In this document: piece by piece, positions 1,767-63,729 of the stretch
Layout: each line of letters begins with the position of its first letter
Numbering within the stretch: the stretch's first letter is position 1
Origin: Escherichia coli
GTDB taxonomy: Bacteria > Pseudomonadota > Gammaproteobacteria > Enterobacterales > Enterobacteriaceae
Assembly: GCA_005400705.1 (NCBI GenBank)
Contig: GCA_005400705.1_4079.1
Direction: 5' to 3' (one strand)
DNA: 64,000 nt
Translations under genes and position numbers: made by a program
Notes under the pieces: generated by a model
Database searches by the model: none
What the model was told of the DNA's origin: nothing
Seen by the model: the letters and a program-made list of their open reading frames with translations, nothing else

Positions 1767-2695
1767 TGAAACAACTACAAGAACTATATCAAAAAATTCT
1801 AGATGAAGGCGTAGAAAGCGTTGACCGTACTGGTGTTGGAACAATCAAACTTATCGGTCAACAAATGCGTTTTGACCTTAAAGATGGTTTCCCAGCAGTG
1901 ACGACAAAACGTCTAGCTTGGAAAGCAATGACTTCAGAATTACTATGGTTTATTGAAGGTTCCCATGATGAGCGTCGCCTTTGTGAAATTTTGCATGGAA
2001 CTCGTGATACAGAAAAGAAAACTATTTGGACAGATAATTACCTAAATCAAGGCGTTGCTCTTGGTTATACTGATGGTGAGTTAGGTCCAGTGTATGGTAA
2101 GCAATGGCGTGAATGGGAAGATTATAAATTTAGTTCCAGTACTGAAGAAATTCAAGAATTAAAAGATAAAGGATACAAAGTTATCGATTATACTGGATCG
2201 CATGGTGTTGTTATGAAACGTACAACTGACCAATTACAGGAACTAATCAAAGGTATAAAGTCCGATCCATATGGTCGTCGCCATATTCTAAGTGCATGGA
2301 ACGTTGGTGAGCTTGATGATATGACGTTACCACCTTGTCATAGCTTTGTACAATTTTGTGTAGTACAAGGGAAACTAAGCTGCATTCTACATCAAAGATC
2401 CGCTGATCTATTTTTGGGAGTTCCATTTAATATCAGTAGTTATTCACTACTAACTCATATGATTGCACAAATTACTGGTTTAGATGTTGGTGAATTTATT
2501 TGGAATGGTGGTGATTGTCACATTTATAAAAACCACGTTGAACAAGTAAAAGAACAACTACAGCGAAAACCTCGTGAATTACCTGAATTGTGGCTTGATC
2601 CTACAATTACTAATATTGAAGATTTCACTATGGATTCTTTTAAATTAGTGAATTACAACCCAATGCCAACAATTAAAGCACCTATGGCTGTATAA
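1766..2695 (+). CDS. td: thymidylate synthase
   Basis: 309-aa product with canonical ThyA motifs including catalytic LPPCH (TLPPCHSFVQF) and a T4 Td-like N-terminus; uninterrupted reading frame. Confidence 0.95.
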   Translation: MKQLQELYQKILDEGVESVDRTGVGTIKLIGQQMRFDLKDGFPAVTTKRLAWKAMTSELLWFIEGSHDERRLCEILHGTRDTEKKTIWTDNYLNQGVALGYTDGELGPVYGKQWREWEDYKFSSSTEEIQELKDKGYKVIDYTGSHGVVMKRTTDQLQELIKGIKSDPYGRRHILSAWNVGELDDMTLPPCHSFVQFCVVQGKLSCILHQRSADLFLGVPFNISSYSLLTHMIAQITGLDVGEFIWNGGDCHIYKNHVEQVKEQLQRKPRELPELWLDPTITNIEDFTMDSFKLVNYNPMPTIKAPMAV

Positions 2696-2698
2696 ACG

Positions 2699-2730
2699 AA
2701 AAGGGAGAACTGATGTTCTCCCTTTTTTAT
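2699..2730. terminator. bidirectional intrinsic terminator between convergent td and fibre gene
   Basis: AAGGGAGAAC / GTTCTCCCTT inverted repeat with 4-nt loop, A-tract before and T-tract after. Confidence 0.75.
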
Positions 2731-44263: not shown

Positions 44264-45103
44264 ATGACAAATAGACCAAAGCGTAAAAAGTATCTCAATA
44301 ATGCTGATTTACTGCGTGAAATACAAAAAAGTAAAATTTCATATTGCTGGTTATTAGACAAATCATATAGTATGTATGATTATATTGTTTTTCATGAGTC
44401 AGAAATTACTGCTGAGTTACTAGAAAAAGCTAAGGCAGCCCGAATTAAACGACTGAACAATGAAATGCTTGATAGTATTCGTGAAAAGGAAAATATGAGT
44501 GCTAAAAAAGCTAAAGAATATGCAGATGAACACAATTTAGTTATCACTGACGTTCCAATTGATGAAGTTGTTATTCGTGTTATTACAGATGAACATATTC
44601 CACCAGATACTAGAGTTAACTTTGAACCATTCAAGCATTATATTGTAGATAATGAAGGTATTCTCTATGAAGTTTGTCGTTCTCACTGGAAAGGCGACCT
44701 TGAAACTGGTGAATTCAGTACTGTTCATGGTAAAATTACAAATGAACTTGGGAAGATGTTCATTAAACTTGCAGAGGAAATCTCACACAAATCTAATTAC
44801 AGAAACTATACATACTTAGATGAAATGATGGGTGATGCAAGAATACAATTAGTTAAAAACGCACTTCTCTTTAAAGAGAGCATTCTTTATAAAAAAGATA
44901 AACCAGCAGTTCAGCTAAATCCTTTCTCTTACTATACATCATTCGTAAACAATAGTTTTCGTTCTATATTGAATAGTGAGAAAAATGTTCGAAATATACG
45001 TGATGATTTACTTGAAATGCATGGCTTTACGCCATCACATACACGTCAAATTGAAATTGAATTGAACATGATTGAAAGGAAAAATGAAGATGGCTCTGTT
45101 TGA
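44264..45103 (+). CDS. late-transcription sigma factor, gp55-like
   Basis: 279 aa; N-terminal KKYLNNADLLREIQKSK resembles the gp55 family N-terminus as recalled from memory; conserved T4 synteny gp55-gp47-gp46. Confidence 0.55.
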   Translation: MTNRPKRKKYLNNADLLREIQKSKISYCWLLDKSYSMYDYIVFHESEITAELLEKAKAARIKRLNNEMLDSIREKENMSAKKAKEYADEHNLVITDVPIDEVVIRVITDEHIPPDTRVNFEPFKHYIVDNEGILYEVCRSHWKGDLETGEFSTVHGKITNELGKMFIKLAEEISHKSNYRNYTYLDEMMGDARIQLVKNALLFKESILYKKDKPAVQLNPFSYYTSFVNNSFRSILNSEKNVRNIRDDLLEMHGFTPSHTRQIEIELNMIERKNEDGSV

Positions 45104-46121
45104 TAAAGCAATTACATTCACTGATATTCACTTAGGTTTAAAGAATAACAGCAAGCAACACAATGAAGATTGTTTAAACTTCATTAAATTCATGATTGAT
45201 GTAGCTAAAAAAAATAATATCAAAGTTTGTGTTTTTATGGGAGATTATTTTCATAATAGAAGTAATATCAATATCCAAACACTAAACTATGGTTTACAAA
45301 TTCTTCAATTATTAAATGATAATTTTGAAAAAGTATATTTTTTAGTAGGCAACCATGATATGTATCATAAAAACAAACGTGATATAACAAGTATCAATAT
45401 GGCTCAAGTTTATGAAAATATAGAATTCATTAATGAAATTACAACATTTGATGATTGTACTTTCATTCCATTTATGATTGAAGATGAATATAAGTTGTTA
45501 CCTCAACTAAAAAGTAAGTATGTTTTTGGTCACTTAGAGTTACCAGGTTACTTGCTTAACAAGATGGTAGAAATGCCTGATCATGGAAAAGAAACAGAAG
45601 GTTCTTTTGGTGGTTGTGAGTATGTTTTTAGTGGGCATTTTCATAAAAGGCAGTCAAAAACAACTTCAAAAGGAACTCGTGTAGTTTATACTGGTAATTG
45701 TTTTCCACATAATTTTTCCGATACATGGGATGATGCAAGAGGTGTGATGATTCTTGAACATGGTAAAGAACCTATTTTCAAGTCATGGGATAATGCACCA
45801 AAATATAGAACATTCACACTTTCTGAATTGTTGACTGATCCAAGCTATTATCTACAAGATAACACAATATCAAAAGTTCAAGTTGATATATCAATAACAA
45901 CTGATGAGATTAGTTTTATTCGTGATACATTTACTAAACTTTATAACATTAGGGAGTTTAATGTTGTAACTAGCAAGCAAAGTATTTCAGAATTAATCGA
46001 AGATGGTGTTAGTTTTGAAAGTACTGAATCAGTTGATGAGATAGTTTTACAGCAAATTATGGAAATTGATTCACCAATGTTTGATAAAAATCTTCTAATC
46101 CAAATTTACAGATCGTTATAA
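45090..46121 (+). CDS. recombination endonuclease subunit gp47 (Mre11-like)
   Basis: Calcineurin-like phosphoesterase motifs (FTDIHLG, GDYFHN, LVGNHDM); ORF-track 45072 start is TTG; ATG 45090 has an AAGGA RBS at 9 nt. Confidence 0.8.
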   Translation: MALFDKAITFTDIHLGLKNNSKQHNEDCLNFIKFMIDVAKKNNIKVCVFMGDYFHNRSNINIQTLNYGLQILQLLNDNFEKVYFLVGNHDMYHKNKRDITSINMAQVYENIEFINEITTFDDCTFIPFMIEDEYKLLPQLKSKYVFGHLELPGYLLNKMVEMPDHGKETEGSFGGCEYVFSGHFHKRQSKTTSKGTRVVYTGNCFPHNFSDTWDDARGVMILEHGKEPIFKSWDNAPKYRTFTLSELLTDPSYYLQDNTISKVQVDISITTDEISFIRDTFTKLYNIREFNVVTSKQSISELIEDGVSFESTESVDEIVLQQIMEIDSPMFDKNLLIQIYRSL

Positions 46122-46129
46122 GGGACTAT

Positions 46130-48277
46130 ATGCTAAACATTACACGTATATCTATGAGGAACTTCTTTTCATTTGGTAATGCACCACAATCAATTGATTT
46201 GAATGGTTCCGACATTTCATTAGTACTGGGTCAAAATAATGATGCAGTTATTGAAGGTGGTGACAGTACCGGACGTCGAAATGGTGTAGGGAAAAGTGCT
46301 ATTATTCAAGGATTAGTTTTTGGATTATTTGGTAAAAGTATTGGTAATGATATTAAAATTCCGAACCTAGTCAATAAAACTAATGGCAAAAATTGTGAAG
46401 TAGTTGTAGAGTTTGAAAAAGATGGTGTACAATATCTGGTTGAACGTGGGAGAAGTCCCACGTATTTCAATTTTGTTACTTTAGGGAAAGATAATAAAAT
46501 TGAAGATGAATCAAGGGGAGAAAAGAAAGACACACAAGAAGATTTGAATGAAATTCTTGGTATATCTCAATTATTATTTGAACATATTGTAGTACTGAAT
46601 GCTAACGTTGAACCTTTCTTAGCTTTATCCACACAAAAACAACGTGATATGATAGAAGAACTTCTTGGAATAACACAGTTGACGGAAAAAGCTGAAATGC
46701 TAAAGGAGATGTATAAGGATACTAAACGTTTAGCCGAACAAGAAAAGTTCAAAAATGAAACTGTAGCTGCAAGTAATGAACGTATTCAAAAAAGTATTGA
46801 GACACTACAAGAACAGGCAAACCAGTTTGAAATTGATAAAAATAATAGAGTATCTAAGTTAAATGAAGAGTTGAATATATATAAAACTTTAGACTTTAAT
46901 GACCTCTATGAAGCTGCTGATATAAAAGAGAAAGCTCTTATTCATAACGCAAAGCGTGGGGAAATCGAACGCCGTGTACAAGAGTTGGCTTTAAAATTTG
47001 ATGCATATGACCGTGAACTTGAAAGATCTAAAAGAGAATTAAATCTAAGCATTGATAAGCTAAAAACTATTGATATTAGTGCAGAATTGGAAAATCATAA
47101 TGAGTTGGAGATATGGAAACAGTTAGAGGGTATTCTAAAAGAGAATAATAACCAAAAACGTTTCAAAGAACAAAAACTAAACTCACTAAAAATAGCTTTA
47201 AAAGGATATGAATGTTCAATTAATGCTGAAATTGACAAATTATCAACAGTTGAAAACAGCAAATGTCCACTTTGTATGTCTGAATTAGAACATAACGAAC
47301 ATACTTCTTCAATTAAAGACAAAATCCAAAGTACTATTAATGATCTTCAAGCTAAAATTGATAGTTCTTCTTCTGAAATTGAAACATTACTTCAAGAAAT
47401 TGATAGTATTGAGATTTTTGATATGCCACCTAAGCCTGTGACATATTATAATACACTTTCAGAAGCACAAATGCATGAACATAAGCTTCAAGAATTGGTC
47501 AGAAAGAGTGAAGAAGAACAAATAAACATCTATGCAAATGAACTTATGTCATCATATGATGAACTTAACTCATATGAACTAATGGAAGTTCCAGATACAT
47601 TAAACAAATATGAAGTTAAAGAGTTAGAAATGACTGTAAATTCATTATCACAGCAATTAGATCGTGAATTGAAGACTACTAACACATTTATTAGCCAAAT
47701 TAATACCCTGAAGACTGATTCTTTAGTACCAATCGATTATAGCGACTATAATAATCTTGATAAAATGTCAAATCACCAAGATTTCTTGGTTAAATTACTT
47801 TTAAACAAGGATTCTTATGTCCGTAAACGTATTATTGAGCAAAATATCTCATATTTGAATACACGACTTCAGTACTATATCGATATGTGCGGTTCTGAGC
47901 ATAATGTTGTGTTTTTGAATGATTTGAGTGTTGAAATTGAGAAGAGTGGACAGTACTTTGACTATAAACAGCTTAGTAGAGGTGAGCGTACAAGGGTAAA
48001 CATCGCATTATCTTGTGCTTTCCGTGATACATATGAGTCATTATACCAAAGTATTAATATTCTTATCATTGATGAGATGATTGACCAAGGTCTTGACTCA
48101 AGTGGTGTTCTACGTGTGTGGTCTATCTTCCAAGATATGGCTGCTGTACGTGGTAAGAACGTTTATGCTATTTCCCACAGAGAAGAGTTACTATCTAAGA
48201 CTGAAAAAATCCTCAAAGTTGTTAAAGAGGACGGTTTCAGTACTGTTGAATATGCAACCCTTGACGATGTTTTCTAA
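46130..48277 (+). CDS. recombination endonuclease subunit gp46 (Rad50/SbcC-like ATPase)
   Basis: N-terminal Walker A GRRNGVGKS, long central coiled-coil-like region, C-terminal Walker B ILIIDEMIDQGLD. Confidence 0.85.
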   Translation: MLNITRISMRNFFSFGNAPQSIDLNGSDISLVLGQNNDAVIEGGDSTGRRNGVGKSAIIQGLVFGLFGKSIGNDIKIPNLVNKTNGKNCEVVVEFEKDGVQYLVERGRSPTYFNFVTLGKDNKIEDESRGEKKDTQEDLNEILGISQLLFEHIVVLNANVEPFLALSTQKQRDMIEELLGITQLTEKAEMLKEMYKDTKRLAEQEKFKNETVAASNERIQKSIETLQEQANQFEIDKNNRVSKLNEELNIYKTLDFNDLYEAADIKEKALIHNAKRGEIERRVQELALKFDAYDRELERSKRELNLSIDKLKTIDISAELENHNELEIWKQLEGILKENNNQKRFKEQKLNSLKIALKGYECSINAEIDKLSTVENSKCPLCMSELEHNEHTSSIKDKIQSTINDLQAKIDSSSSEIETLLQEIDSIEIFDMPPKPVTYYNTLSEAQMHEHKLQELVRKSEEEQINIYANELMSSYDELNSYELMEVPDTLNKYEVKELEMTVNSLSQQLDRELKTTNTFISQINTLKTDSLVPIDYSDYNNLDKMSNHQDFLVKLLLNKDSYVRKRIIEQNISYLNTRLQYYIDMCGSEHNVVFLNDLSVEIEKSGQYFDYKQLSRGERTRVNIALSCAFRDTYESLYQSINILIIDEMIDQGLDSSGVLRVWSIFQDMAAVRGKNVYAISHREELLSKTEKILKVVKEDGFSTVEYATLDDVF

Positions 48278-48284
48278 TTAAAGA

Positions 48285-48312
48285 TAAAGGGAGCCTTAGC
48301 TCCCTTTTTTTA
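48285..48312. terminator. bidirectional intrinsic terminator after gp46
   Basis: AAGGGAGC-CTTA-GCTCCCTT hairpin followed by TTTTTTAT; the stop codon of the convergent minus-strand nuclease gene lies in its loop. Confidence 0.75.
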
Positions 48313-48787
48313 TATCAACCATATTTAATTTACCGTCCTTAATCAGCTTTCTAGCTTGCTTTACACGAGCAGTAGTGTTACTACCAGGGACAACTCCTAA
48401 CCCTTCCAGAATCGCGTTTTGCTGTGTTGCTGGAAGCCTTTTAAACTTATTAACATCCACAGTTAGTGCTGTGTGATGTATGACTTGCTCTTCAGGTGGA
48501 ATGTTATTGTTCTTTTCAAGATAATCTGCCAGATTTCTTAGTACTTCATGAAGAGGTTTATCAGTTAAATGGCCCAGACAGCGTTTAAATGAATTTGCGA
48601 CCCTTCCTTCCCATCCATTCACCTCATTTTGAAGAACCTGTCTACAATGTTGATTTCCACCATGATAGTGGTCAAGTACTGGTTTAGTTATTTTTATTCC
48701 TATAATGGGGTCAATACCATTTTGTTTTTTTAGTAGTTCTTTTCTGTAAGCTGCTGCTTCATTGGGATTTTTCAATCTCTTTTTCAT
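48296..48787 (-). CDS. HNH / endonuclease VII-like (beta-beta-alpha-Me) nuclease
   Basis: 163 aa with LDHYHGGNQHCRQVLQNEVNGWEG resembling the His-Me finger core of T4 endonuclease VII / HNH proteins, as recalled from memory. Confidence 0.4.
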   Translation of the reverse strand: MKKRLKNPNEAAAYRKELLKKQNGIDPIIGIKITKPVLDHYHGGNQHCRQVLQNEVNGWEGRVANSFKRCLGHLTDKPLHEVLRNLADYLEKNNNIPPEEQVIHHTALTVDVNKFKRLPATQQNAILEGLGVVPGSNTTARVKQARKLIKDGKLNMVDIKKGS

Positions 48788-48793
48788 AGCGTT

Positions 48794-48822
48794 TTGTCCT
48801 GTTTCTGTAAATAATGTATATT
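48794..48822 (+). promoter_or_regulatory. putative sigma70 promoter of the homing endonuclease gene (TTGTCC-N17-TATATT)
   Basis: -35-like TTGTCC 48794-48799 and -10-like TATATT 48817-48822 upstream of ATG 48848; weaker match than the other promoters. Confidence 0.3.
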
Positions 48823-48847
48823 AAAAAGTTTTGTGAGGTACACAAGA

Positions 48848-49804
48848 ATGGCTAAAATTACACAACAACAATTCATAGATAAATCAATGAATATTCATGG
48901 TAGTATTTACACATACAATAAAACAATATATGTCAATGCACACCATCCAATAACTGTTACGTGTAACATTCACGGTGACTTCACAGTAGTTCCTAATAAA
49001 CACATTTCTGCAAAACAAGGTTGTCCAGTTTGTTCTGATATTGCAAAGAAAGAACGAAAGTCTAAAAAATCTCTGGGGTCATTCTTCACTGAAGCTACCG
49101 AAGTTCATGGTGATAAGTATGATTACTCAAAAGTGTTTTTTAACATTCGTTCAGAAAAGATTACTATTATATGCAAAGAAAAAGGTCATGGTGAATTTAA
49201 TCAAGTAGTTAGTAATCATCTATCTGGACAAGGTTGCCCTGAATGTGCCAAAATTCAAAATGGATTAAAGAAGAGAACTCCAGAAGATGTGTTCTTTGAA
49301 GATTGTAAGTTCATACACATGGATAATTATGATTACTCTAATACAAAATATAATGGCATGTATGAAACCATTACACCATTATGTAAGAGACATGGGGAAT
49401 TCACCGTACTAGCTACTAAGCATTATCATAGAAAACAAGGGTGTCCAGTTTGTTCAGACCAAGAACTAAAATCAAAACCTGTTATTGAAATTCAGAATTT
49501 TTTAAAAACGTGTGATATAATGTTTGAAATGGAAAAGAAATTTGATAGTTGTAAAAACATCAATCATTTACCATTTGATTTTTATATTCCTGAACTTAAT
49601 CTACTAATAGAATATGATGGTATCCAACACTTCAAACCAATAGAATACTTCGGTGGAGAAGAAGGTTTAGCTGAACAACAACGAAATGATGAAATTAAGA
49701 ATAAGTATTGTTATGATAATAATATTACTTTACTTAGAATAAAGTATTCAGATGACCACATTAAAATTATAAAAGACTTCATATCAAAAAATATAAATTA
49801 TTGA
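48848..49804 (+). CDS. free-standing homing endonuclease-like protein: zinc-ribbon repeat array plus Vsr/PD-(D/E)xK-type nuclease domain
   Basis: Three ~45-aa repeats ending in GCPxC (YDYS...HG.F...GCPVCSD) followed by LLIEYDGIQHF...RND.IKN...LLRI resembling the very-short-patch-repair-like endonuclease fold; ORF-track start is GTG at 48833; ATG 48848 has a GAGG RBS. Confidence 0.6.
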   Translation: MAKITQQQFIDKSMNIHGSIYTYNKTIYVNAHHPITVTCNIHGDFTVVPNKHISAKQGCPVCSDIAKKERKSKKSLGSFFTEATEVHGDKYDYSKVFFNIRSEKITIICKEKGHGEFNQVVSNHLSGQGCPECAKIQNGLKKRTPEDVFFEDCKFIHMDNYDYSNTKYNGMYETITPLCKRHGEFTVLATKHYHRKQGCPVCSDQELKSKPVIEIQNFLKTCDIMFEMEKKFDSCKNINHLPFDFYIPELNLLIEYDGIQHFKPIEYFGGEEGLAEQQRNDEIKNKYCYDNNITLLRIKYSDDHIKIIKDFISKNINY

Positions 49805-49816
49805 ATAGTTTTTATG

Positions 49817-49850
49817 AACCAAGTAATGTTTTGTTACTTGGTTTTTTTAT
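49817..49850 (+). terminator. intrinsic terminator
   Basis: AACCAAGTAA / TTACTTGGTT 10-bp stem with 7-nt loop followed by TTTTTTTAT. Confidence 0.75.
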
Positions 49851-49897
49851 ACTTCAAAAATGTACTAAGTACTTTTTTATTTTTTTATGATATTAGT

Positions 49898-49925
49898 GGG
49901 AAGATTTTAAAAATGGTGCTATAAT
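49898..49925 (+). promoter_or_regulatory. sigma70-type early promoter (GGGAAG-N16-TGcTATAAT) with no ORF downstream
   Basis: GTGGGAAG 49896-49903, 16-nt spacer, extended -10 TGcTATAAT 49917-49925; near-identical core to the gp55 promoter. Confidence 0.55.
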
Positions 49926-49973
49926 GTTTGTTGTAGTAATGACAATCCTGTTGAATGCAGAAATGCATATAAA

Positions 49974-50060
49974 TTAGAACCTGATCCTATCGAAAATGTA
50001 GATGGCAGATGAGCAGTTCAACAGTGCGATGAGCAAAAGAAACCCGTTAGATGTGGGCAT
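49974..50060 (-). CDS. candidate 28-aa hydrophobic peptide (MPTSNGFLLLIALLNCSSAIYIFDRIRF), antisense to the putative ncRNA
   Basis: ATG 50058-50060 on the minus strand preceded by GAGGGG at 8-nt spacing; predicted single hydrophobic helix; no convincing minus-strand promoter found. Confidence 0.2.
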   Translation of the reverse strand: MPTSNGFLLLIALLNCSSAIYIFDRIRF

Positions 50061-50362
50061 AGTTTGAACCCCTCACGGCAATGCGGCTCAATAAAGAACT
50101 CCGATAAGCATACAGAGAGTTCCTAGATAGACATATAAGGATCGCACCTTACCAGATTTGCTAAGGGAGTTTATTAAGTGATTTTAATAAACAGCCTGAA
50201 GTTTGATTGTATAGACTTTCAGGTGAGTGTCAGGATGATTAAGACTGACGACCGTTGCACATGACTGCGATAGAGAGAAACAGAGCAACCCGCTTTCGTT
50301 CTTAATATATTTTTAAGAAATTCGCAATACAATAAATGCTGAAACCATCAGCGTCAAGAAAT

Positions 50363-50388
50363 AGAGACTTCATTGTCTCTTTTTTATT
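50363..50388 (+). terminator. intrinsic terminator (AGAGAC-TTCATT-GTCTCT, TTTTTTATT)
   Basis: 6-bp stem with 6-nt loop followed by a T-tract; a second GC-rich 9-bp hairpin (50393-50414, UGCG loop, one U-G pair) follows with no T-tract. Confidence 0.6.
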
Positions 50389-50600
50389 GTCTTCATTCCC
50401 CTGCGGGGGGATGAAAATGTCCTCAACAAATCCCGTCAAGTATTAAATCTTTTAAAGTTCTTTATAATTAATTTAATTAAATGAATATGAGTTACGTAGT
50501 AACGAATATTCTTCAGCTAACGAATGAAATGAGTTAGATGAATCTAATAATATTAAAATTAATCCTTTCATAATTCAATTCAAATAATTCTGTAGTTTAA

Positions 50601-50630
50601 AACCAAAAAAACCAGCAACAATGTGCTGGC
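50601..50630 (-). terminator. intrinsic terminator after the 69-aa/278-aa operon
   Basis: CCAGCA-CATTGT-TGCTGG hairpin on the minus strand followed by TTTTTTTGG. Confidence 0.6.
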
Positions 50631-50640
50631 TATATGAAAA

Positions 50641-50850
50641 TTAGTGCTTCTCGTTTTGTTTTTTAATTTTTTTATTAAAAGACTTAACTAATAAGTCTCT
50701 ATCTATTAATGGCATATTAAGGAGTGTTCCATAGTCAATGTTATCCATATATACAGAACATTCCATTAGTGCATTTTTGATTTCTGACTTATTCAGTTCT
50801 ATCTCCTTCAGTACTTCTTGTATTTCTTCAGGAGATGACTGGAGAAGCAT
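50641..50850 (-). CDS. small hypothetical protein
   Basis: 69-aa ORF whose start overlaps the stop of the upstream 278-aa gene by one base. Confidence 0.45.
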   Translation of the reverse strand: MLLQSSPEEIQEVLKEIELNKSEIKNALMECSVYMDNIDYGTLLNMPLIDRDLLVKSFNKKIKKQNEKH

Positions 50851-51686
50851 TACTCGAAAAAATGACTAGGATCATATTTTAGTCCATCAATTTCCCATTG
50901 ATGATTACATCCATCACATTCTACTTCCATACTATGAGATACACCAATTTCAAGTACTTCATCCATTTTTTCACGAATTAGTTTAAGTACTCCCTTCGAT
51001 TGTTGTCCAAGCCATTCATTAATAAATTCTTTTTCAACTACTTCATCACCATCTGGTGTTATAATTTTTGCAATAACTCCACCAATCATATCGAAGTTAA
51101 GTTGAGCCATGTTTTCAAATACTTCAGAAAATATTTTTACTTTTTCATCTTTATCAATATCAGCAGTTTCAAGAAACTTAGTCTTCTGCTGCTCACTGAA
51201 CATGCGTTCAGCAAACGATGAATATTCTTTCCATGTCAGTGGTCTAAATTCTAAACGTAGTCCATTATCTAAATCAATTGATGGGATTTCTTCAAATGCT
51301 TGTGCAGTTTCAAGAAGATATGATAGATTACGTTCAAATCGACCTTCTTTTTCACATTCAGGACATACAACGTTAATATCATATGTTTCTTCTTTAGAAG
51401 CAACTTTAATAGCAATAAGAAGCATTTCAACGTCATTTACATACAACTCATCAGCGTCAATTACATTAGGAACACAGTTTTCAATAACACGGGATACTGC
51501 ATCTCCGTTTAGTAACATATCGGGGGTATTAAGTGTCATTTCATCACGTGCACTACGTGCACAAACTCCACATTTGACACCTTTTGGACCTAGAACTCCT
51601 TCTTTATAAGGAATAACGCCGTTTGTAACTAACTTAGTACTGATCTCTTCAATTTTAGTGTACTTAGCAAGTGGATTCATAGCCAT
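50850..51686 (-). CDS. late protein with three CxxC motifs (function unassigned)
   Basis: 278 aa; CGVC, CPEC and CDGC spaced through the protein; GGAGA RBS; late promoter upstream. Confidence 0.55.
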   Translation of the reverse strand: MAMNPLAKYTKIEEISTKLVTNGVIPYKEGVLGPKGVKCGVCARSARDEMTLNTPDMLLNGDAVSRVIENCVPNVIDADELYVNDVEMLLIAIKVASKEETYDINVVCPECEKEGRFERNLSYLLETAQAFEEIPSIDLDNGLRLEFRPLTWKEYSSFAERMFSEQQKTKFLETADIDKDEKVKIFSEVFENMAQLNFDMIGGVIAKIITPDGDEVVEKEFINEWLGQQSKGVLKLIREKMDEVLEIGVSHSMEVECDGCNHQWEIDGLKYDPSHFFE

Positions 51687-51720
51687 TTTATTAAATCTCC
51701 ATGTAATAAATGTGTTTTAG

Positions 51721-51728
51721 TATTTATA
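51721..51728 (-). promoter_or_regulatory. T4-type late promoter (TATAAATA)
   Basis: Exact TATAAATA on the minus strand 34 nt upstream of the 278-aa gene ATG. Confidence 0.5.
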
Positions 51729-51776
51729 AGACTAAAAAAGATTAAATTAAACTAATTTTTATATTCTCTATAGTTT

Positions 51777-51784
51777 CATAAATA
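51777..51784 (+). promoter_or_regulatory. late promoter-like element (CATAAATA)
   Basis: One-mismatch TATAAATA variant 32 nt upstream of the 734-aa gene ATG, divergent from the promoter at 51721. Confidence 0.3.
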
Positions 51785-51816
51785 TTTCTATAATACATCT
51801 ATTAAAAGGGAATGTT

Positions 51817-54021
51817 ATGGCTGGAAATACAAGTGATTACCTACTCCAGCAGTTGGTTAATCAAACTAAAGATAACAACGATAGTTTGAGTGCTATTCGT
51901 GAGTTATTGGCTGAAAATATAAAAAATGATAGAAAGAAATCCGGTTCTAAAAGTGGAAAACGTAATGGAAGTAATTCATCAAGTACTGGAAACCGTGGCT
52001 CTCGAACAAATAACAAAGCTGATGATGGTAAAGAATTTGGAAAAATATTCAAATCATTATCATCTGAAGTATCGAATGTCGGCAAAACTATGATGAGTAC
52101 GTCTGCAAACGTTAGCAATGTTGTAAACTCACTAGGAATGAGTGCATCTTCATTTGCTGGTTCATTAGCAATGATCCCAGGTCCAGTTGGTGCAGCAGCA
52201 TCTGCATTCAAATTGGTTGCTGACGCTGGTTTAGCAGTTTATAATGTGTTAAATGCACAGCTTGAAGTTTATAATAGAATAAACAGTGCTGGTGTCGCTC
52301 TATCTGAAGGTTACGGCTCCATATTAAAAGGTGCTGGTGCATCAATGATGAGTATTGATGCATTTGGTGAAGCATTACAAACTCATAGTGCCGTTGTTGC
52401 ACAATTAGATGGTGCATATGGTGATGGTGTTTCTACATTTGGTAAATTATTGGGTACTGTGCAACAAGCACAAAATCAATTAGGTTTATATGGTGTTTCT
52501 CAAAAAACATTAACTGATTTAACTGCACGTAATATTAAATTCCAAAAGCAATTTGGTGGAAGAGAAATGTTACGTAGTATGGATCAAGCAAAAAGTACTG
52601 AACAGTTTATCATGAGTATGACTAAGTTTAGTAAAAGTATGGGTGAGTCAGTTGATGCACTATTAAATAAAACACAAAACTTAGATAAATCATTAGACAC
52701 ACGTTCAATGCAAATCGCATTACAAAACTATTCTGGATTATCTAGTAAAGCAGCAGTTGCAACATCAAAAGCATTTAACGAAGCTGCTGCCAGTATGGGT
52801 GATGCTGGTGCAGATTTTCTACGTTTAATTTCACATCGTTTAACTATTGGTGGAGTACCAGATGATTTATTGACTCCAGTACTGAACCAATTTGCTGATT
52901 TAGGTGAGAACTTGGTACGTAGTGGTGTTACTGATTCACAAGAAATTCGCCGTCAACAATTGGAATTTGTTAAAAAGAACAAAGAACTAATAAAGCAAGA
53001 TTTATTAAATCAGATACAATTAGGAAACACTACGGCAGCAACCTTCAACCAACAACTACTTGATATGGAAGCTGCGATTAATGATCCTAAGAGTCAACCA
53101 GCAGATAAACTAACACAATTCACTGATAGATTCAATAGATGGATTAGTAAAGAATTTACTGAACCATTTAATAAAATGTATGCAGATACACAAAATTCTA
53201 TTGCGGATTACCTTACTGATATTGCAGACCGTACTGATGGTGCATGGGAATTCATCGGAGAGTTAGCACTTGATGGTTTTGGTTTGGTTCCTATTGCGAA
53301 AGATGCAGTTGCGTATTTGGATAGGATTGGTGGTGAGTTTGAGCAGTGGTTAGAAGGGTTAGGTACTGAAATTTTTGGTAGTGGATATAATAAAGTTTCA
53401 GAAGCATTTGATAGCTTTATGAATAACCTAATGGATCTTCCTGGTAAACTTTGGGATTCTGTTAAAGGTTGGTTTGGTGGTTCAGACGACAAAGTAAAAG
53501 TAGAAAACAATTCTGTTACCGATGGTGCAGAAAAAGTTAATAATTATTTTGAAGAAAAAATGAATTCATTTGGTGATTATATTTCTAGTTCATTTGATGG
53601 TTTTTTAAAATGGAATTCAAGTAGAAACTTTAAACAACCAAAACCCCTTGATGAATCAGTTGCTGAAAAACTTATTAGTAGTGGTCTTGAAAATAAGCCA
53701 AGAGCAACTGCGAGAATCGAAAAATCTGAACATGTTGCACCATATGTTACCATAACTCCAAAAACTTTTGATAAATCAGCATGGGGTCCAAATGAACCAC
53801 CAATTCAAGCTGAACCGGACGATTATGAGGCCATGAAAGCGATGATAAATAGTGGTAGTAGTATGGCAAATGCTAATAATAATGCCACAATATCAGAAGA
53901 CATGAAAGAGTTACTTAAAAAACTTGCTGATGTTAATGAGCAATCTCTATCTGCTGTGCAACAGACAAATAACTATCTAAGAACTATCTCTGAAAACACT
54001 CAAGGTGAGAGAAACAGTTAA
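51817..54021 (+). CDS. virion protein upstream of portal (possible tape-measure-like or internal head protein)
   Basis: 734 aa, predicted largely alpha-helical with Ala/Gly/Ser-rich tracts and an N-terminal Ser/Asn/Lys-rich region; function not assigned. Confidence 0.5.
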   Translation: MAGNTSDYLLQQLVNQTKDNNDSLSAIRELLAENIKNDRKKSGSKSGKRNGSNSSSTGNRGSRTNNKADDGKEFGKIFKSLSSEVSNVGKTMMSTSANVSNVVNSLGMSASSFAGSLAMIPGPVGAAASAFKLVADAGLAVYNVLNAQLEVYNRINSAGVALSEGYGSILKGAGASMMSIDAFGEALQTHSAVVAQLDGAYGDGVSTFGKLLGTVQQAQNQLGLYGVSQKTLTDLTARNIKFQKQFGGREMLRSMDQAKSTEQFIMSMTKFSKSMGESVDALLNKTQNLDKSLDTRSMQIALQNYSGLSSKAAVATSKAFNEAAASMGDAGADFLRLISHRLTIGGVPDDLLTPVLNQFADLGENLVRSGVTDSQEIRRQQLEFVKKNKELIKQDLLNQIQLGNTTAATFNQQLLDMEAAINDPKSQPADKLTQFTDRFNRWISKEFTEPFNKMYADTQNSIADYLTDIADRTDGAWEFIGELALDGFGLVPIAKDAVAYLDRIGGEFEQWLEGLGTEIFGSGYNKVSEAFDSFMNNLMDLPGKLWDSVKGWFGGSDDKVKVENNSVTDGAEKVNNYFEEKMNSFGDYISSSFDGFLKWNSSRNFKQPKPLDESVAEKLISSGLENKPRATARIEKSEHVAPYVTITPKTFDKSAWGPNEPPIQAEPDDYEAMKAMINSGSSMANANNNATISEDMKELLKKLADVNEQSLSAVQQTNNYLRTISENTQGERNS

Positions 54022-58883: not shown

Positions 58884-58928
58884 ATATCATACTGAAAAAC
58901 GAATATAACATCTTTAAGGAGATATATA

Positions 58929-60104
58929 ATGTCACAACTACTAAATGAATCCAAATGGGTAGCAGTAAAAGAGAAACTAGTTGAAGGTCTACAGGGTACT
59001 CGTAAGTCTGTAATGGAAACTGTTCTTGATAACCATCGTAAAGTTATGCTAACTGAATCCGCAACTTCTGGTGCAACTACCGCTGGTAACATCGCTACTC
59101 TAAACAAAGTGATTCTACCAATTATGCGTCGTGTAATGCCAACCGTTATTGCTAACGAAATCATCGGTGTTCAACCTATGACTGGTCCAGTTGGTCAGAT
59201 CCACACCCTACGTGTACAATATGCTGATAACGCACCTGGTGTAATCGCTGGTGAAGAAATGCTTTCTCCATACAAAATCGCTAAATCTTACTCTGGTGAT
59301 CTAAATGCGGATAATAGCAACCCACAAGCTGCTCCTACTAGCCAACTAGAAGGTACTATGGGTCGTCGCGTTAACATCCGTATTCTACGTGAAACTGTTG
59401 AAGCGAAATCTCGTCGTCTATCTGCACGTTGGACTGTTGAATCTGCACAAGATGCTCAATCCCAACATGGTGTTGACGTTGAAGCAGAACTAATGGCTGC
59501 AATCGCTCAAGAAGTTACTGTAGAAATCGACCAAGAGCTACTAAGCCGTCTACGTGCACTACCTGGTGCTGCTGCTGTAACTTATGACCAATCTAAAGTT
59601 ACTGGTGTTGCAACCTTCGTTGGTGATGAGCACGCTGCTCTAGCTACTCTAATTAACCGTCAAGCAAACGAAGTTGCTCGTCGTACTAAGCGTGGTGCTG
59701 CAAACTGGGCTGTTGTTTCCCCAACTGCACTAACCATTCTACAATCTGCTACTACTTCTAGCTTTGCACGTACCACTGAAGGTACTTTTGAAGCACCAAC
59801 TAACGTTAAGTTTGTAGGTACTCTAAACAGCACTATGCGTATTTTCGTTGATACCTATGCTAGTGATGCAGAAGATATTCTAATTGGTTATAAAGGTAAT
59901 GCGGAAACTGATGCTGGTGTATTCTATTGCCCATACATCCCACTAATGGCTTCTGGTACTGTAATGGACCCTAACACTGGTGAACTCGTGACCACATTTT
60001 TAACACGCTATGGCTACGTTCAGCTAACCGACAGTACTTCATCTCTTGGTAACGCTGCTGACTACTACAGCAAAATCGCTATCAAAAACGTTACTTTCAT
60101 GTAA
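58929..60104 (+). CDS. major capsid protein (gp23-like)
   Basis: 391 aa; PTVIANEIIGVQPMTGPVGQIHTLRVQY, EAKSRRLSARWTVESAQD and GYKGNAETDAGVFYCPYIPL parallel T4 gp23 (PNLIAFDICGVQPMNSPTGQVFALRAVY, EAKSRQLKAAYSIELAQD, GYKGPNEMDAGIYYAPYVAL) as recalled from memory. Confidence 0.85.
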   Translation: MSQLLNESKWVAVKEKLVEGLQGTRKSVMETVLDNHRKVMLTESATSGATTAGNIATLNKVILPIMRRVMPTVIANEIIGVQPMTGPVGQIHTLRVQYADNAPGVIAGEEMLSPYKIAKSYSGDLNADNSNPQAAPTSQLEGTMGRRVNIRILRETVEAKSRRLSARWTVESAQDAQSQHGVDVEAELMAAIAQEVTVEIDQELLSRLRALPGAAAVTYDQSKVTGVATFVGDEHAALATLINRQANEVARRTKRGAANWAVVSPTALTILQSATTSSFARTTEGTFEAPTNVKFVGTLNSTMRIFVDTYASDAEDILIGYKGNAETDAGVFYCPYIPLMASGTVMDPNTGELVTTFLTRYGYVQLTDSTSSLGNAADYYSKIAIKNVTFM

Positions 60105-60146
60105 TTATAAACGATTTAAAAGATTTAATCAAGAATATAAAAACAA

Positions 60147-60177
60147 TAGGGACTCTTCGGAGTCCCTTTTCTTTTGT
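60147..60177 (+). terminator. intrinsic terminator after the major capsid gene
   Basis: AGGGACTC-TTCG-GAGTCCCT hairpin (UUCG tetraloop) followed by TTTCTTTTGTGTT. Confidence 0.8.
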
Positions 60178-60190
60178 GTTAAAAAAATGC

Positions 60191-60219
60191 TTGACAGAAT
60201 ATTTTTAATTATATATAAT
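60191..60219 (+). promoter_or_regulatory. consensus sigma70 promoter (TTGACA-N17-TATAAT)
   Basis: Perfect -35 TTGACA 60191-60196 and perfect -10 TATAAT 60214-60219 with a 17-nt spacer, between the capsid terminator and the homing endonuclease ORF. Confidence 0.65.
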
Positions 60220-60252
60220 TATCAAATCGAAACCAAGTTGAGTAAATTGAAA

Positions 60253-61341
60253 ATGTTAATTGAAAATTTCAAAAAGAAAATGAATGAAAAATATGGAATG
60301 TATGGTGAGTTTGATTTTAATTCGATGATTTTTAAATCTAGCAAAACTACCTTGAAATGTAACAAATGTGGTATTGAAAATACAAAGTCTGCAATTCGTC
60401 ATATCTCATGTACTTGCTCTAACTGTTATAGTAACATGTCCCAGCGTTCCAATAATGATGATTTCATTTTAAAAGTTGAAAAGAAATTCGGGACTGAAAA
60501 ATTTAAATTTGATAAATTGGTTTATGTTAATGCAAAAACTCCAGTTACAATATTCTGCACTAAACATAATGGTTATTTTCACATAACACCAAATAAGTTA
60601 TTAACTGGTGCTGGATGTAACGTTTGTAATATTAATGTAGTGCATACGAATAATGAATTTATAAAAATTGTTAAACGTAATTATGGTGATAAATTTAGTT
60701 TCCAAAAAACCAACTATATTAACAGAACAACAAAAGTCACAGTGCATTGCAATGAAGGAAATCATGATTGGGAAGTTGATCCAAAAACATTGATACTTGG
60801 GAAGTCAGGATGTGGTATATGTTCAGGTAAAGGTGGGAGAACAACCGAGCAATTTATTGCAGAAGCTGTAAAAGTTCATAACAATAATTATGATTACTCA
60901 TCTGTTATGTATGAGCATAGTGAAAAAATGGTCGAGATAAAATGCAACAATTGTAAAAATATTTTTCATCAGCAACCTAAAGCACATTTGACAGGTCGTG
61001 GTTGTCCAAAATGCGGTAAGTATGGTTATCAGACTTCCAAGCCTGGATATTTTTATGTACAGAAACTAACTAATAAAGATAAAACCGTTTACAAATATGG
61101 AATCACTGGTGATATGAAACGTAGAGTGAACGAACAGAGTCGTGATTCTGAATTCGTCCATGAAGTACTAGTAGAACGTTTCTTCGAAGATGGTAATAAA
61201 CCCCTCTTACTGGAAAAGTTTATCAAGCAGTACATTGAAAGTGGAGTAGTAAGTACTGAAGAGTTGCCGTCAGGATTTACTGAAACGTTTGATGAAAAGT
61301 ATCTAAAATCTGTACTGGAAATTGTAAATACCTTTAAGTAA
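60253..61341 (+). CDS. free-standing homing endonuclease-like protein: zinc-ribbon repeat array plus T5orf172 (GIY-YIG-like) nuclease domain
   Basis: Four ~45-aa repeats ending in GC..C (F.F...Y.N.....V...C...H..F...P..L.G.GC.VC); C-terminal GYFYVQKL...YKYGITGDMKRRVNEQ resembles T5orf172; ORF-track start 60046 would overlap the capsid gene and terminator, so ATG 60253 downstream of the promoter is preferred. Confidence 0.6.
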   Translation: MLIENFKKKMNEKYGMYGEFDFNSMIFKSSKTTLKCNKCGIENTKSAIRHISCTCSNCYSNMSQRSNNDDFILKVEKKFGTEKFKFDKLVYVNAKTPVTIFCTKHNGYFHITPNKLLTGAGCNVCNINVVHTNNEFIKIVKRNYGDKFSFQKTNYINRTTKVTVHCNEGNHDWEVDPKTLILGKSGCGICSGKGGRTTEQFIAEAVKVHNNNYDYSSVMYEHSEKMVEIKCNNCKNIFHQQPKAHLTGRGCPKCGKYGYQTSKPGYFYVQKLTNKDKTVYKYGITGDMKRRVNEQSRDSEFVHEVLVERFFEDGNKPLLLEKFIKQYIESGVVSTEELPSGFTETFDEKYLKSVLEIVNTFK

Positions 61342-61364
61342 ACAATCTAAAGGAGTTGACACGG

Positions 61365-61715
61365 ATGTTAACTGTATACAAATTTAAAAGAGAAGAGTAC
61401 TTAAAGAGCCAGTACTCAAATATAGAAATAAATGTTCCTTATGGTACGTTAGTTGGATACGATGAAGCCACTGAAACATTGTATTATAATGATGATAGAT
61501 TAGATTATAGTTTAGATTCTTTCATAGAAGATATACTTAATACACATACTGAAGATATGTTGTATGAAGAATACATCGATCATTATAGAGAACGTATGTC
61601 GCTGCTGCATTCTGATGCTCCTGTGCTAAACATTGCACAAGAACCCTCGGAATTTCAGCCACATAATCCTTTTCAACGTTTAATTGATATTGGTTTAAAA
61701 TTCACTATTAATTGA
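61365..61715 (+). CDS. hypothetical protein
   Basis: ORF-track 61356 start is TTG; ATG 61365 has an AGGAG RBS at 9 nt; no family recognised. Confidence 0.45.
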   Translation: MLTVYKFKREEYLKSQYSNIEINVPYGTLVGYDEATETLYYNDDRLDYSLDSFIEDILNTHTEDMLYEEYIDHYRERMSLLHSDAPVLNIAQEPSEFQPHNPFQRLIDIGLKFTIN

Positions 61716-61754
61716 TAGATAAATATCTCCATATTAATGATGGAGATTGAATCT

Positions 61755-62063
61755 ATGTCACAGATATGTTATGTTATAATAAACTCTGCATGGCCTGACT
61801 ATGTTAAGATTGGTTTCACTTCTAAATCTGAAATGACAGAGCGTTTGAGAACGTATCAGACAGCTACCCCGTTTCGTGATTTTGAAGTTTATCATGAAGT
61901 TCACTTTGAAGACGCACGTTTAGCTGAAAAAGAGATACATAAAAGGCTTAAACAAATGAATGCAACTAGACAACCAAACACGGAGTGGTTTAAAATGTCT
62001 AAAAAGATAGCAGCAAACATCATTGATTCTGTGTGGGATGATATGGATAACGACTTGCTATAG
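61755..62063 (+). CDS. stand-alone T5orf172 (GIY-YIG-like) domain protein
   Basis: ICYVIINSAWPDYVKIGFTSKSEMTERLRTYQT fits the T5orf172 core; start set at ATG 61755 (GGAGA RBS at 8 nt) rather than 61737. Confidence 0.55.
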   Translation: MSQICYVIINSAWPDYVKIGFTSKSEMTERLRTYQTATPFRDFEVYHEVHFEDARLAEKEIHKRLKQMNATRQPNTEWFKMSKKIAANIIDSVWDDMDNDLL

Positions 62064-62103
62064 GAATAAATATAGTATATATTAATCATAAAGGGATTTA
62101 TAC

Positions 62104-63729
62104 ATGAGCATAAGTTTTAATAACCCATTGGATACAATGACCAGTACTGGTGCTAATGGATCTTTAGAACTAATAGTGCTTGGTGGTACACCAACTAACC
62201 CAAGACCTATTCGTTTTAATTCGTCATCAGTTATTATACCAGTACAAACTTTACCTACTGGTGAACAAGGTGCAATGGTTTTTGATCGAAGCGAATTAGT
62301 TTTGAAGTATCATAACGGTACAAGTTGGGTTGCAGTATATGATACTGATACTATTTTGGAACCAATTAGAATTTCATTAGATGAAGTAAACCGAAAATTA
62401 AATTTAAAAGTAGAAAGTGTAACATACAGTAGTAGTACTGTTCCTAGTGCAAGTATTAGTGGAACAACCTTAAACATTGTATTCCCTACTGCTTCTAGTG
62501 GTGGTTCTGGTCCAACTGGTCTTTACACTTCACTTAAACCTGGTGCTATTACACAATATTCATTGACTTCTGGACAAACTGTTGCTAGTATTCGTGAACA
62601 GATGTCTGGAGTAACTAATGGTCAAAGTGGTCGTAATGGTTCACAAGGTTCTCCGTGGAAAACTTCTGATGGTTGGTGTTTTGCTGATGGTATGTGGTGG
62701 CAATGGGAGGGGGAAAATGGTACAATCACTAAACAAGTTCCAAATCTTAACCAAGAAGCATACTTGAAAGGCATTACCACATCAGGCGTAACTAAAACTG
62801 ATAGTGTGATTGCAAGTAGTGCATCAATTAGTGGTACTGCGATATCAATTGCTCAACTTCCACCGCACTCATTTAGTTTCAGTGGAACTACTGGTGCTGC
62901 TGGTCGTCATGGTCATAGCCAAGCACTAAGAGGTATGGACAGAAGTGGTCTTAATGCGTTAACATCCAGTAACGACAACGGAATCCCAACTGTAATTAAT
63001 AACATTAACGAAGCACCTGATCACGTGCATAGTTTCAGTGGTTCAACCAATACCGTTGGTAGTGGACAAGCACATACCCACGGAATTAGCAATATTGACG
63101 TACCACACTTTAATGTGGCATACTTATATAACATTGCTGAGTCTAACGTTGCATTGAGTGAAAAAGTTGCAAACACCCGTTATGTACTTAAAACTGGTGA
63201 TGTAATGACTGGTTCATTGACTATTGCTAACAGTGCTTCTATACGTTCAAATGACACTTCATTAGTACTTTACTTCCGTAACGCTACTAATGGTGAACGT
63301 GCAGCAATTTATCATAATTCATCTAACAATACATTACGTTTGAGAAGTAATGGTGGTTCGGAAGTTACAATTAACTCTTCTGGTGTACTTTATGCCCCAT
63401 CAGTTACTGGTGCATCATTGTCTATTTCTGGAAACACTGCAACTGTTGCCAGTAAAAACATCGTAAGATCTATTAACGGTAACAACGCTGATGTAAACGG
63501 TAACGTAACTTTAACACTAGGTGCTGTACAAGATGTTCGTTTAAGTAAAAGAACAACTACGCGACATGTTCCTGATTCTTCTTGGAACTATGTACCTGAA
63601 GGTGCTACACTTGATGGGTTGTTTATTTCAGTAAATGGTAGTTCAGGTACACACGTTGAAGGTTTGAGTTGGAGATATACACAAAAACTTGTAAATGGTG
63701 TATGGACTAACGTAGTAGTGGAGTCTTAA
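62104..63729 (+). CDS. tail fibre protein with phage tail-collar domain
   Basis: 541 aa; WCFADGMWWQWEGENG...AQLPPHSFSFSGTTGAAGRHGHSQ...APDHVHSFSGS...AHTHGI resembles the tail-collar fold of T4 gp12-type fibres; VLKTGDVMTGSLTI fibre motif. Confidence 0.7.
   Translation: MSISFNNPLDTMTSTGANGSLELIVLGGTPTNPRPIRFNSSSVIIPVQTLPTGEQGAMVFDRSELVLKYHNGTSWVAVYDTDTILEPIRISLDEVNRKLNLKVESVTYSSSTVPSASISGTTLNIVFPTASSGGSGPTGLYTSLKPGAITQYSLTSGQTVASIREQMSGVTNGQSGRNGSQGSPWKTSDGWCFADGMWWQWEGENGTITKQVPNLNQEAYLKGITTSGVTKTDSVIASSASISGTAISIAQLPPHSFSFSGTTGAAGRHGHSQALRGMDRSGLNALTSSNDNGIPTVINNINEAPDHVHSFSGSTNTVGSGQAHTHGISNIDVPHFNVAYLYNIAESNVALSEKVANTRYVLKTGDVMTGSLTIANSASIRSNDTSLVLYFRNATNGERAAIYHNSSNNTLRLRSNGGSEVTINSSGVLYAPSVTGASLSISGNTATVASKNIVRSINGNNADVNGNVTLTLGAVQDVRLSKRTTTRHVPDSSWNYVPEGATLDGLFISVNGSSGTHVEGLSWRYTQKLVNGVWTNVVVES

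Follow-up and report, generated by a model that had tools for sequence, protein, structure and literature searches.

Two open reading frames (ORFs) that both look like nuclease genes lie side by side to the right of the gp46-like recombination gene in a stretch of phage DNA, and the question that this locus raises is whether they form one mobile nuclease island or whether one of them is a resident gene. The stretch is a 64,000-nucleotide piece of an assembly filed under Escherichia coli (GCA_005400705.1, contig GCA_005400705.1_4079.1; hereafter the window), and by its sequence it is assigned to the 121Q/PBECO4-like jumbo coliphages (Asteriusvirus). The initial annotation had described the two genes as a nuclease island wedged in between gp46 and the head module, with an HNH/EndoVII-like ORF on the minus strand and a zinc-repeat homing endonuclease with a Vsr-type domain on the plus strand. 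In our analysis, the locus very probably consists of one core gene, endoVII, which encodes endonuclease VII (EndoVII), and one recently acquired, intact and free-standing cassette carrying a homing endonuclease gene (HEG) of the zinc-array/Vsr type. The coordinates of the features are collected in Table 1.

The boundaries of the insertion were obtained by comparison with relatives lacking the insert, a check that the initial annotation had proposed. When the window was aligned with the HEG-less phage G17, homology extended up to 48788 and began again from 49866, and the 1077 bp at 48789–49865 stand in place of 58 bp in G17. The cassette is polymorphic at this fixed site, as two records carry the HEG and about 28 records, together with four records of Salmonella SD phages, have the empty site. 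No gene remnants were seen in the HEG-less relatives, which have a clean intergenic sequence of 58 bp. The plus-strand ORF starts at 48833 or 48848; ATG 48848, preceded by GAGG at a distance of 9 nt, is probably the start codon and would give a protein of 318 amino acids (aa). In GenBank, this gene is unannotated or labelled 'hypothetical'.

The same site is occupied in other phages. Four orthologues (P0003, P0023, P0026 and P0074) with 51–60% identity are located directly upstream of and divergent from endoVII in four metagenomic jumbo phages (L004, L005, L006/L007 and L008), the EndoVII proteins of which are 59–80% identical to that of the window. Salmonella phage Munch, a cultured phage, has a 957-nt gene for a 'hypothetical protein' at this site, with 54% identity over the C-terminal 114 residues. 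An HEG at the endoVII site is absent from EJP2, Hallingskeid, GAP32 and CBB. The homing endonuclease proposed in the initial annotation is thus borne out by empty sites in about 30 relatives, by orthologues at the same site and by flanks that resemble co-conversion tracts (see below), and we are highly confident of this identity of the element. Its family is widespread: a protein search with the plus-strand ORF gave 7613 scored matches, and tblastn placed relatives at many different loci in a total of 1030 phage records. Among the tblastn relatives are I-MsaI, which is encoded in an intron of Staphylococcus phage MSA6, and proteins annotated 'Hef-like', one of which, from a phage, matches residues 28–259 of the plus-strand ORF. 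It was also observed that L004 carries a second HEG (2418–3449, minus strand), which encodes 343 aa with DUF4379 and T5orf172/MUG113 and, between gp46 and endoVII, occupies the place of the terminator that these two genes share. Since endoVII of L004 has HEGs on both of its sides, the locus is a recurrent landing site for HEGs.

The protein of the plus-strand ORF begins with three tandem CHCC modules, in which a core of about 58 aa recurs with a period of 70 aa and the ligands follow the pattern C-x2-H ... C-x2-C. The initial annotation was right about three tandem zinc repeats, although it had taken them to be about 45 aa long. In a Pfam scan, DUF723 matched three stretches of the protein at 29.6 bits (cut-off 20.9), DUF4379 matched at 25.7 bits (cut-off 24.5), and the twelve predicted zinc-ligand positions are invariant or near-invariant in 115 homologues. 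The array is predicted to be made of zinc-finger DNA-binding repeats of the CapR/DUF723/DUF4379 type. It is a rather unlikely idea that the modules of about 58 aa are independent, combinable DNA-reading units, each of which contacts a few base pairs. If this idea were true, the lineage would be a natural data set for the recognition code of a new class of modular, possibly re-targetable nucleases: orthologues that are 51–60% identical occupy one genomic site in several phage genera, with empty target alleles for each.

The remainder of the protein is an alpha/beta domain. An AlphaFold2 model of the plus-strand protein, built from the 115 homologues (mean predicted local distance difference test score 95.4), has three helix / beta-hairpin / zinc-knuckle modules with helical linkers, followed by this domain (residues ~207–318). 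Foldseek matched the model to 1VSR at a probability of 0.99 with weak E-values, and the fold of the nuclease domain also resembles more distant PD-(D/E)xK enzymes, namely Hjc, TnsA and VRR-NUC. The C-terminal domain is predicted from the model to have a Vsr-type fold, in agreement with the PD-(D/E)xK Vsr-like domain of the initial annotation. The prototype of the EDxHD family is I-Bth0305I (PDB 3R3P), whose motif consists of E170, D196, H213 and D222 (PMC3239194). In the C-terminal domains of 29 diverse homologues of the plus-strand protein, D244, E255, G258, H261 and D281 are invariant. The spacing of 17 between D244 and H261 equals that between D196 and H213 in I-Bth0305I, and E255 falls in the 'x' region of EDxHD. 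The N-terminal E of EDxHD (first helix, consensus 'SKGE') is not invariant among close orthologues in a sequence alignment. D244, E255, H261 and D281 are candidate catalytic residues. PF04480 is a precomputed match in some homologues of the plus-strand ORF, and a profile of the C-terminal domain gave weak matches in the PDB, to the Vsr-like domain of AbaSI (E 0.014) and to 3HRL (E 0.48). The best PHROG match of the plus-strand ORF is PHROG 559, which is labelled HNH endonuclease. We rejected this label as an annotation artefact, because the Pfam scan contained no HNH family and the fold is of the PD-(D/E)xK/Vsr type.

In contrast to the plus-strand gene, the minus-strand ORF belongs to the backbone of these phages. 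It matches PHROG 423 'endonuclease VII' with an E-value of 3.5e-32. A profile of 43 sequences of its family matches the structures 1E7D/1EN7 of T4 endonuclease VII in the PDB (E 8e-7), and hhalign against T4 gp49 gave a probability of 95.4%. The alignment to T4 gp49 is full-length and includes the C-terminal part. D40/H41/H43/N62/E65 of T4 align to D39/H40/H42/N57/E60, which are invariant in the 43 sequences, and the zinc cysteines C23/C26/C58/C61 of T4 EndoVII correspond to D26/I29/Q53/V56 throughout the Rak2-like clade. No conserved cysteine was found at the four T4 zinc-ligand columns in the 43 homologues, and D26 is invariant. This implies that the Rak2-like EndoVII would be a zinc-free variant of the fold. 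Because the four zinc-ligand cysteines are replaced in the clade, the score of Pfam Endonuclease_7 on the minus-strand ORF (13.7 bits, E 0.059) is below the gathering cut-off of 23.6; a precomputed match to PF02945 is present in a few of its homologues. The check by hidden Markov models suggested in the initial annotation had a mixed outcome, as DUF723 and DUF4379 exceeded their cut-offs, Endonuclease_7 and DUF559 did not, and the match to 1E7D was obtained with the family profile.

The position of endoVII is conserved as well. The gene comes right after gp46, with a terminator in common, in G17, UE-S1, the four metagenomic jumbo phages, Hallingskeid, GAP32 and CBB, and the relatives with a syntenic endoVII have E. 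coli, Erwinia, Cronobacter and Pectobacterium as hosts, besides the metagenomic phages. No empty endoVII site was seen among the relatives examined. In phage CBB, endoVII has been named with gp46 and gp47 among the T4-like recombination genes (PMC5259590). As every relative examined has endoVII in the syntenic position, the gene belongs to the core and is not a mobile element, and its product is predicted to be a core junction-resolving/packaging nuclease, a branched-DNA resolvase of the T4 gp49 type. The view that a minus-strand EndoVII-like gene is present was correct, whereas its place in a mobile island was not. Constant presence without empty sites is found for endoVII and not for the plus-strand ORF, and of the two genes said to be wedged in after gp46, only the DNA of 48789–49865 is inserted. 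As a separate observation, the endoVII region in the record of Salmonella phage SD-15_S21 (L002, OR699188.1; 2297–3353) consists of several tiny 'hypothetical' ORFs. The records of the SD phages have an apparent deletion equivalent to 48492–48634 of the window; endoVII may truly be disrupted there, or the assembly or annotation may be at fault.

On either side of the cassette lie tracts that differ from the surrounding backbone. Between 46130 and 48469 (2340 bp), the window differs from G17 at 14 positions, and in the 318 bp of the left tract it differs at 88, which are 88 of the 102 differences within 46130–48788. On the other side, 24 differences were counted in the 65 bp of the right tract and 11 in the 2085 bp from 49916 to 52000. 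The backbone is about 99.5% identical to HEG-less genomes, whereas the flanks of the cassette are about 25% divergent. At the protein level, 22 of the first 99 EndoVII residues are changed in the left tract and none beyond. The Salmonella SD phages have flanks 99.3–99.8% identical to the window, no cassette, and an endoVII 5' end of the 121Q type; it is across this patch alone that they diverge from the window. The left tract is itself a mosaic; a portion matches UE-S1 with 93–100% identity, and over the initial 90 nt of endoVII no phage compared exceeds a resemblance of about 77%. None of the phages compared matches the divergent endoVII tract along its whole length. Such sharply bounded tracts around the cassette are consistent with co-conversion.

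It has been described that free-standing phage HEGs cut the HEG-less allele at a site that may lie tens to hundreds of bp away from where the HEG is inserted. The break is then resected, and its recombinational repair copies the HEG together with flanking markers, a co-conversion that is seen as marker exclusion (PMC2988022). We regard a specific mechanism of this kind as rather more probable than its absence for the cassette. Strung together like beads, the modules of the zinc array would recognise a long DNA target and position the Vsr-type domain on the HEG-less allele, and the Vsr-type domain would cut. During co-infection, the cut would be made in or near the 5' third of endoVII or in the 58-bp intergenic segment of the HEG-less allele. 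The break would be resected and then repaired from the HEG-carrying genome, and this repair would move 48470–49915 as one patch, which comprises the 1077-bp cassette and, next to it, roughly 320 bp of the donor's endoVII to its left and about 50–65 bp to its right. As the patch differs in sequence, the carrier's own allele would presumably be protected. With about 320 bp to the left of the cassette versus about 65 bp to the right, the tracts are asymmetric, which suggests a cut on the endoVII side. Cleavage activity, cut position and direction of transfer are in this way what we infer for the plus-strand protein.

Several results weigh against reading the cassette as a homed zinc-array/Vsr element. 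UE-S1 has no HEG and still carries an endoVII segment that is 93–100% identical to the 'donor-type' tract of the window. Therefore, the divergent allele can occur apart from the HEG, and ordinary recombination could account for the mosaic; a link between the divergent endoVII allele and the presence of the HEG was rejected on this ground. A donor of the cassette was not found, and the nearest orthologue outside the identical cluster has 60% identity. As for the nuclease domain, DUF559 scored 12.3 bits against a cut-off of 20.6 (E 0.16) and DUF2726 scored 17.7 against 24.7 in Pfam, and PDB searches gave noise only, both with the HEG sequence alone and with a profile of 7 sequences. Since the sequence searches were sub-threshold or null, the predicted structure is the main basis of the Vsr assignment. 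Given the E-values of Endonuclease_7 and DUF559, the Pfam scan alone leaves both nuclease domains of the locus unassigned.

The locus can also be explained in other ways. The plus-strand protein may have been co-opted as an anti-phage or anti-satellite weapon or as a DNA-binding regulator, and homing would then be lost or not be its primary function. Its modules are of the CapR/DUF723/DUF4379 type, and such domains have been described in phage-satellite conflict and in the repressor CapR (PMC10448857); in the ICP1/PLE system, roles of this sort fall to CapR-type domains and T5orf172 proteins. The orthologues keep their site across phages whose EndoVII proteins are 59–81% identical, which could mean retention by selection. 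However, the gene is missing in most close relatives without visible consequence, all candidate catalytic residues are intact, and the flanks are sharply bounded, as is expected of transfer by double-strand-break repair. Moreover, competition via marker exclusion would be the same biochemical mechanism as homing. We therefore consider co-option unlikely. Less likely still is an ancestral gene that was deleted repeatedly, combined with unrelated homologous recombination in endoVII and without nuclease-driven gain. The occurrence of same-site orthologues in distant lineages is compatible with ancestral presence, and UE-S1 lacks the gene yet has part of the divergent tract. Repeated deletion does not sit well with the clean 58-bp sequence in the HEG-less relatives, which is free of remnants. 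A backbone about 99.5% identical to HEG-less genomes next to flanks about 25% divergent indicates that a patch was imported from a diverged donor, rather than that about 30 genomes lost the gene.

The locus would be a true two-HEG island if the minus-strand ORF encoded an F-CphI-type homing endonuclease. The EndoVII motif is indeed used by some HEGs (PMC6083498), and the minus-strand ORF is below the Pfam Endonuclease_7 threshold and has no zinc cysteines. Nevertheless, it is syntenic in every relative examined with no empty site seen, and it aligns to T4 gp49 over the full length with no added DNA-binding domain. An F-CphI-like nature of endoVII was rejected for its universal and syntenic presence, and we find the two-HEG island extremely improbable. 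In summary, a resident endoVII beside one acquired HEG cassette is the reading that we prefer.

Table 1. Features of the window discussed in the text, with positions counted from its first nucleotide; assignments of function are predictions.
Feature	Coordinates	Strand	Basis or remark
gp47-like gene	45072-46121		
gp46-like (SbcC/Rad50-type) recombination nuclease subunit	46130..48277	+	Pfam AAA_23/SMC_N on orthologues; conserved left neighbour
Intrinsic-terminator hairpin, bidirectional, common to gp46 (+) and endoVII (-)	48286..48307	both	
Endonuclease VII (T4 gp49 homologue), 163 aa	48296..48787	-	PHROG 423, family profile, alignment, synteny
Left divergent tract, 5' 318 nt of endoVII	48470..48787		Differences from G17
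Inserted HEG cassette, 1077 bp	48789..49865	+	Own Shine-Dalgarno sequence, coding sequence and terminator
Free-standing homing endonuclease (very probable), coding sequence, 318 aa	48848..49804	+	
Zinc module 1, residues 5-63, ligands C39/H42/C59/C62	48860..49036	+	Pfam DUF723
Zinc module 2, residues 76-134, ligands C109/H114/C130/C133	49073..49249	+	Pfam DUF4379
Zinc module 3, residues 146-203, ligands C179/H182/C199/C202	49283..49456	+	
Vsr/EDxHD-type PD-(D/E)xK nuclease domain, residues 207-318	49466..49801	+	
Intrinsic terminator of HEG cassette, 13-bp stem and T run	49816..49851	+	Within inserted DNA
Right divergent tract, 65 bp	49851..49915		Differences from G17
Multi-copy structured RNA candidate, ~470 nt	49978..50448	+	Not part of HEG; unannotated
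Baseplate hub	50850-51686	-	
Second HEG cassette, zinc-module array with T5orf172/GIY-YIG-like nuclease	60253..61341 (start 60187 or 60253)	+	
Stand-alone T5orf172/MUG113 domain protein, 108 aa	61737-62063	+	E 3.7e-13; without DNA-binding array

The gp46-like gene is about 99.4% identical to that of the HEG-less G17, and the hairpin behind it consists of GGGAGC (48289–48294), the loop CTTA (48295–48298) and GCTCCC (48299–48304). The TAA stop codon of endoVII is the reverse complement of 48296–48298 and lies within the loop, exactly as had been noticed before. In a terminator scan, the hairpin scored as terminator-like on both strands, and it is an annotated terminator in G17 and UE-S1. To the right of the HEG, about 840 bp contain no long ORF and are followed by a small minus-strand ORF. 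A 734-aa protein is encoded beyond the baseplate hub, and the portal gene comes next in related loci; what had been called the head module thus has a baseplate hub and a portal and not head genes only.

The region from 47500 to 50500 is 99.9% identical to Escherichia phages ECO103 4-12-1 and EC22.5-2, both of which are unannotated Asteriusvirus records. About 28 further 121Q/PBECO4-like jumbo coliphages match this 3-kb query with 85–95% identity and 61–64% coverage, in two flanking pieces. The region of the capsid gene and the second HEG (58900–63000) was also compared with the records of ECO103 4-12-1 and EC22.5-2 (OR844650.1 / OR845138.1), where 81% of the length matched with 94.3% identity. 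Since the region of the first HEG is 99.9% identical but the capsid region is not, the window comes from another mosaic genome, which has the first cassette in common with these two phages.

The second cassette lies after the major capsid gene. It had been reported to carry the same repeat array with a different nuclease domain. The nuclease is indeed different, as it is T5orf172/GIY-YIG-like, but the two arrays are homologous and not the same: the second has three clear modules and one degenerate module, which are 28–35% identical to the modules of the first cassette. The second cassette matches PHROG 681 'endonuclease' (E 1.6e-73). In Pfam, DUF4379 reached 30.4 bits, above its cut-off, and T5orf172 (15.4) and MUG113 (14.1) were both below theirs. 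This cassette is also polymorphic; 121Q has it, with 88% identity, and PBECO4 does not.

Besides the two cassettes, the region contains a candidate structured RNA, which is probably more interesting than the HEG. An extended -10 box, TGcTATAAT, is located upstream of it at 49917–49925, and no ORF longer than 45 aa is found within 49978–50448. The element is 70–77% identical to sequences of GAP32, CBB, Serratia BF, Yersinia fHe-Yen9-04 and Xanthomonas XbC2, which exceeds the conservation of the neighbouring genes, with four to five matching places per genome. In a profile search, every locus examined (including L001, L003 and L008–L059) had full-length copies, about 470 nt long, and 121Q had three paralogues; the Rak2-like jumbo phages have 3–5 full-length paralogues per genome. 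Covariation was analysed in a 24-sequence alignment with an RNAalifold consensus, and slid partners and 500 shuffles served as controls. The consensus has 112 pairs in 19 helices, and 94.7% of the cells are paired versus about 40% with slid partners. Compensatory changes were found in 56 of the 112 pairs (320 cells). The covariation score was 0.361 versus 0.05–0.06 in the slid controls, and none of the 500 shuffles reached 0.361. The G-U pairs assign the RNA to the plus strand, and an internal terminator-like hairpin lies within a closing helix, GAUGA/UCGUC. Rfam 15 gave no match at E <= 1 on the region or at E <= 10 on the element, there are no tRNAs in the region, and we found no paper on the RNA element in the literature.

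The RNA also occurs in temperate phages. A prophage of Citrobacter amalonaticus P55 (L037, NZ_JBALIF010000001.1) has a full-length copy at 3558–4124, directly downstream of a large serine integrase, behind two TGGTATAAT boxes and upstream of a CI/S24 repressor. The same arrangement was found in two metagenomic loci (L053 2522–3087 and L054 5180–5737, both on the minus strand). Next to the prophage copies are a 165-aa ORF and the divergent CI/S24 repressor, and host pilus genes lie beyond the integrase. Therefore, the RNA is common to lytic jumbo phages and temperate phages.

The analysis corrects the annotation of this locus in three respects: an HEG that was unannotated or 'hypothetical', the 'HNH' label inherited from PHROG, and EndoVII, which is a core gene without the canonical zinc site. 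Cultured phages with the HEG (ECO103 4-12-1, EC22.5-2 and Munch) and many without it (121Q, PBECO4, G17 and others) exist. With defined boundaries, visible conversion tracts and cultured plus and minus phages, cleavage mapping and crosses are straightforward to design.

Both genes of the locus resemble known systems. T4 endonuclease VII (gp49; 1EN7/1E7D) has 157 aa, compared with 163 aa for the minus-strand ORF, and the catalytic set is kept, whereas the Cys4 structural zinc site of T4 is absent from the minus-strand ORF. The closest systems to the plus-strand ORF are homing endonucleases of phage group I/II introns with a CapR-like array and an EDxHD/Vsr-like nuclease, which have thousands of unannotated relatives (PMC12350094). 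These have 3–5 domains of about 60 aa of the CapR/DUF4379/DUF723-like type and then a C-terminal EDxHD/Vsr-like nuclease of about 100 aa, the same architecture as in the plus-strand ORF. They are encoded in introns, whereas the plus-strand ORF is free-standing and intergenic in a jumbo coliphage, with natural empty sites and flanking conversion tracts. I-Bth0305I has about 18% sequence identity and gave no match at the sequence level; a group I intron of recA encodes it, and it binds DNA through NUMOD/helix-turn-helix-like elements instead of zinc modules. Hef of the T4-related phage U5 is a free-standing HEG of the Vsr-like family (PMC3239194; reviewed in PMC2988022), which targets nrdB, a neighbouring conserved gene, and its relationship to the plus-strand ORF is a lead only. 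HEGs of the T5orf172 type have repeated CapR/DUF723/DUF4379 zinc arrays with evidence of domain swapping, and they adjoin essential genes at the boundaries of genetic exchange (PMC10448857). The type of array is common to these HEGs and the plus-strand ORF, which has a Vsr-type nuclease instead and thus represents a swap of the nuclease domain. A free-standing HEG beside an essential gene is expected biology for large lytic phages, and the plus-strand ORF adds a new member, a free-standing one, to a described class of HEGs.

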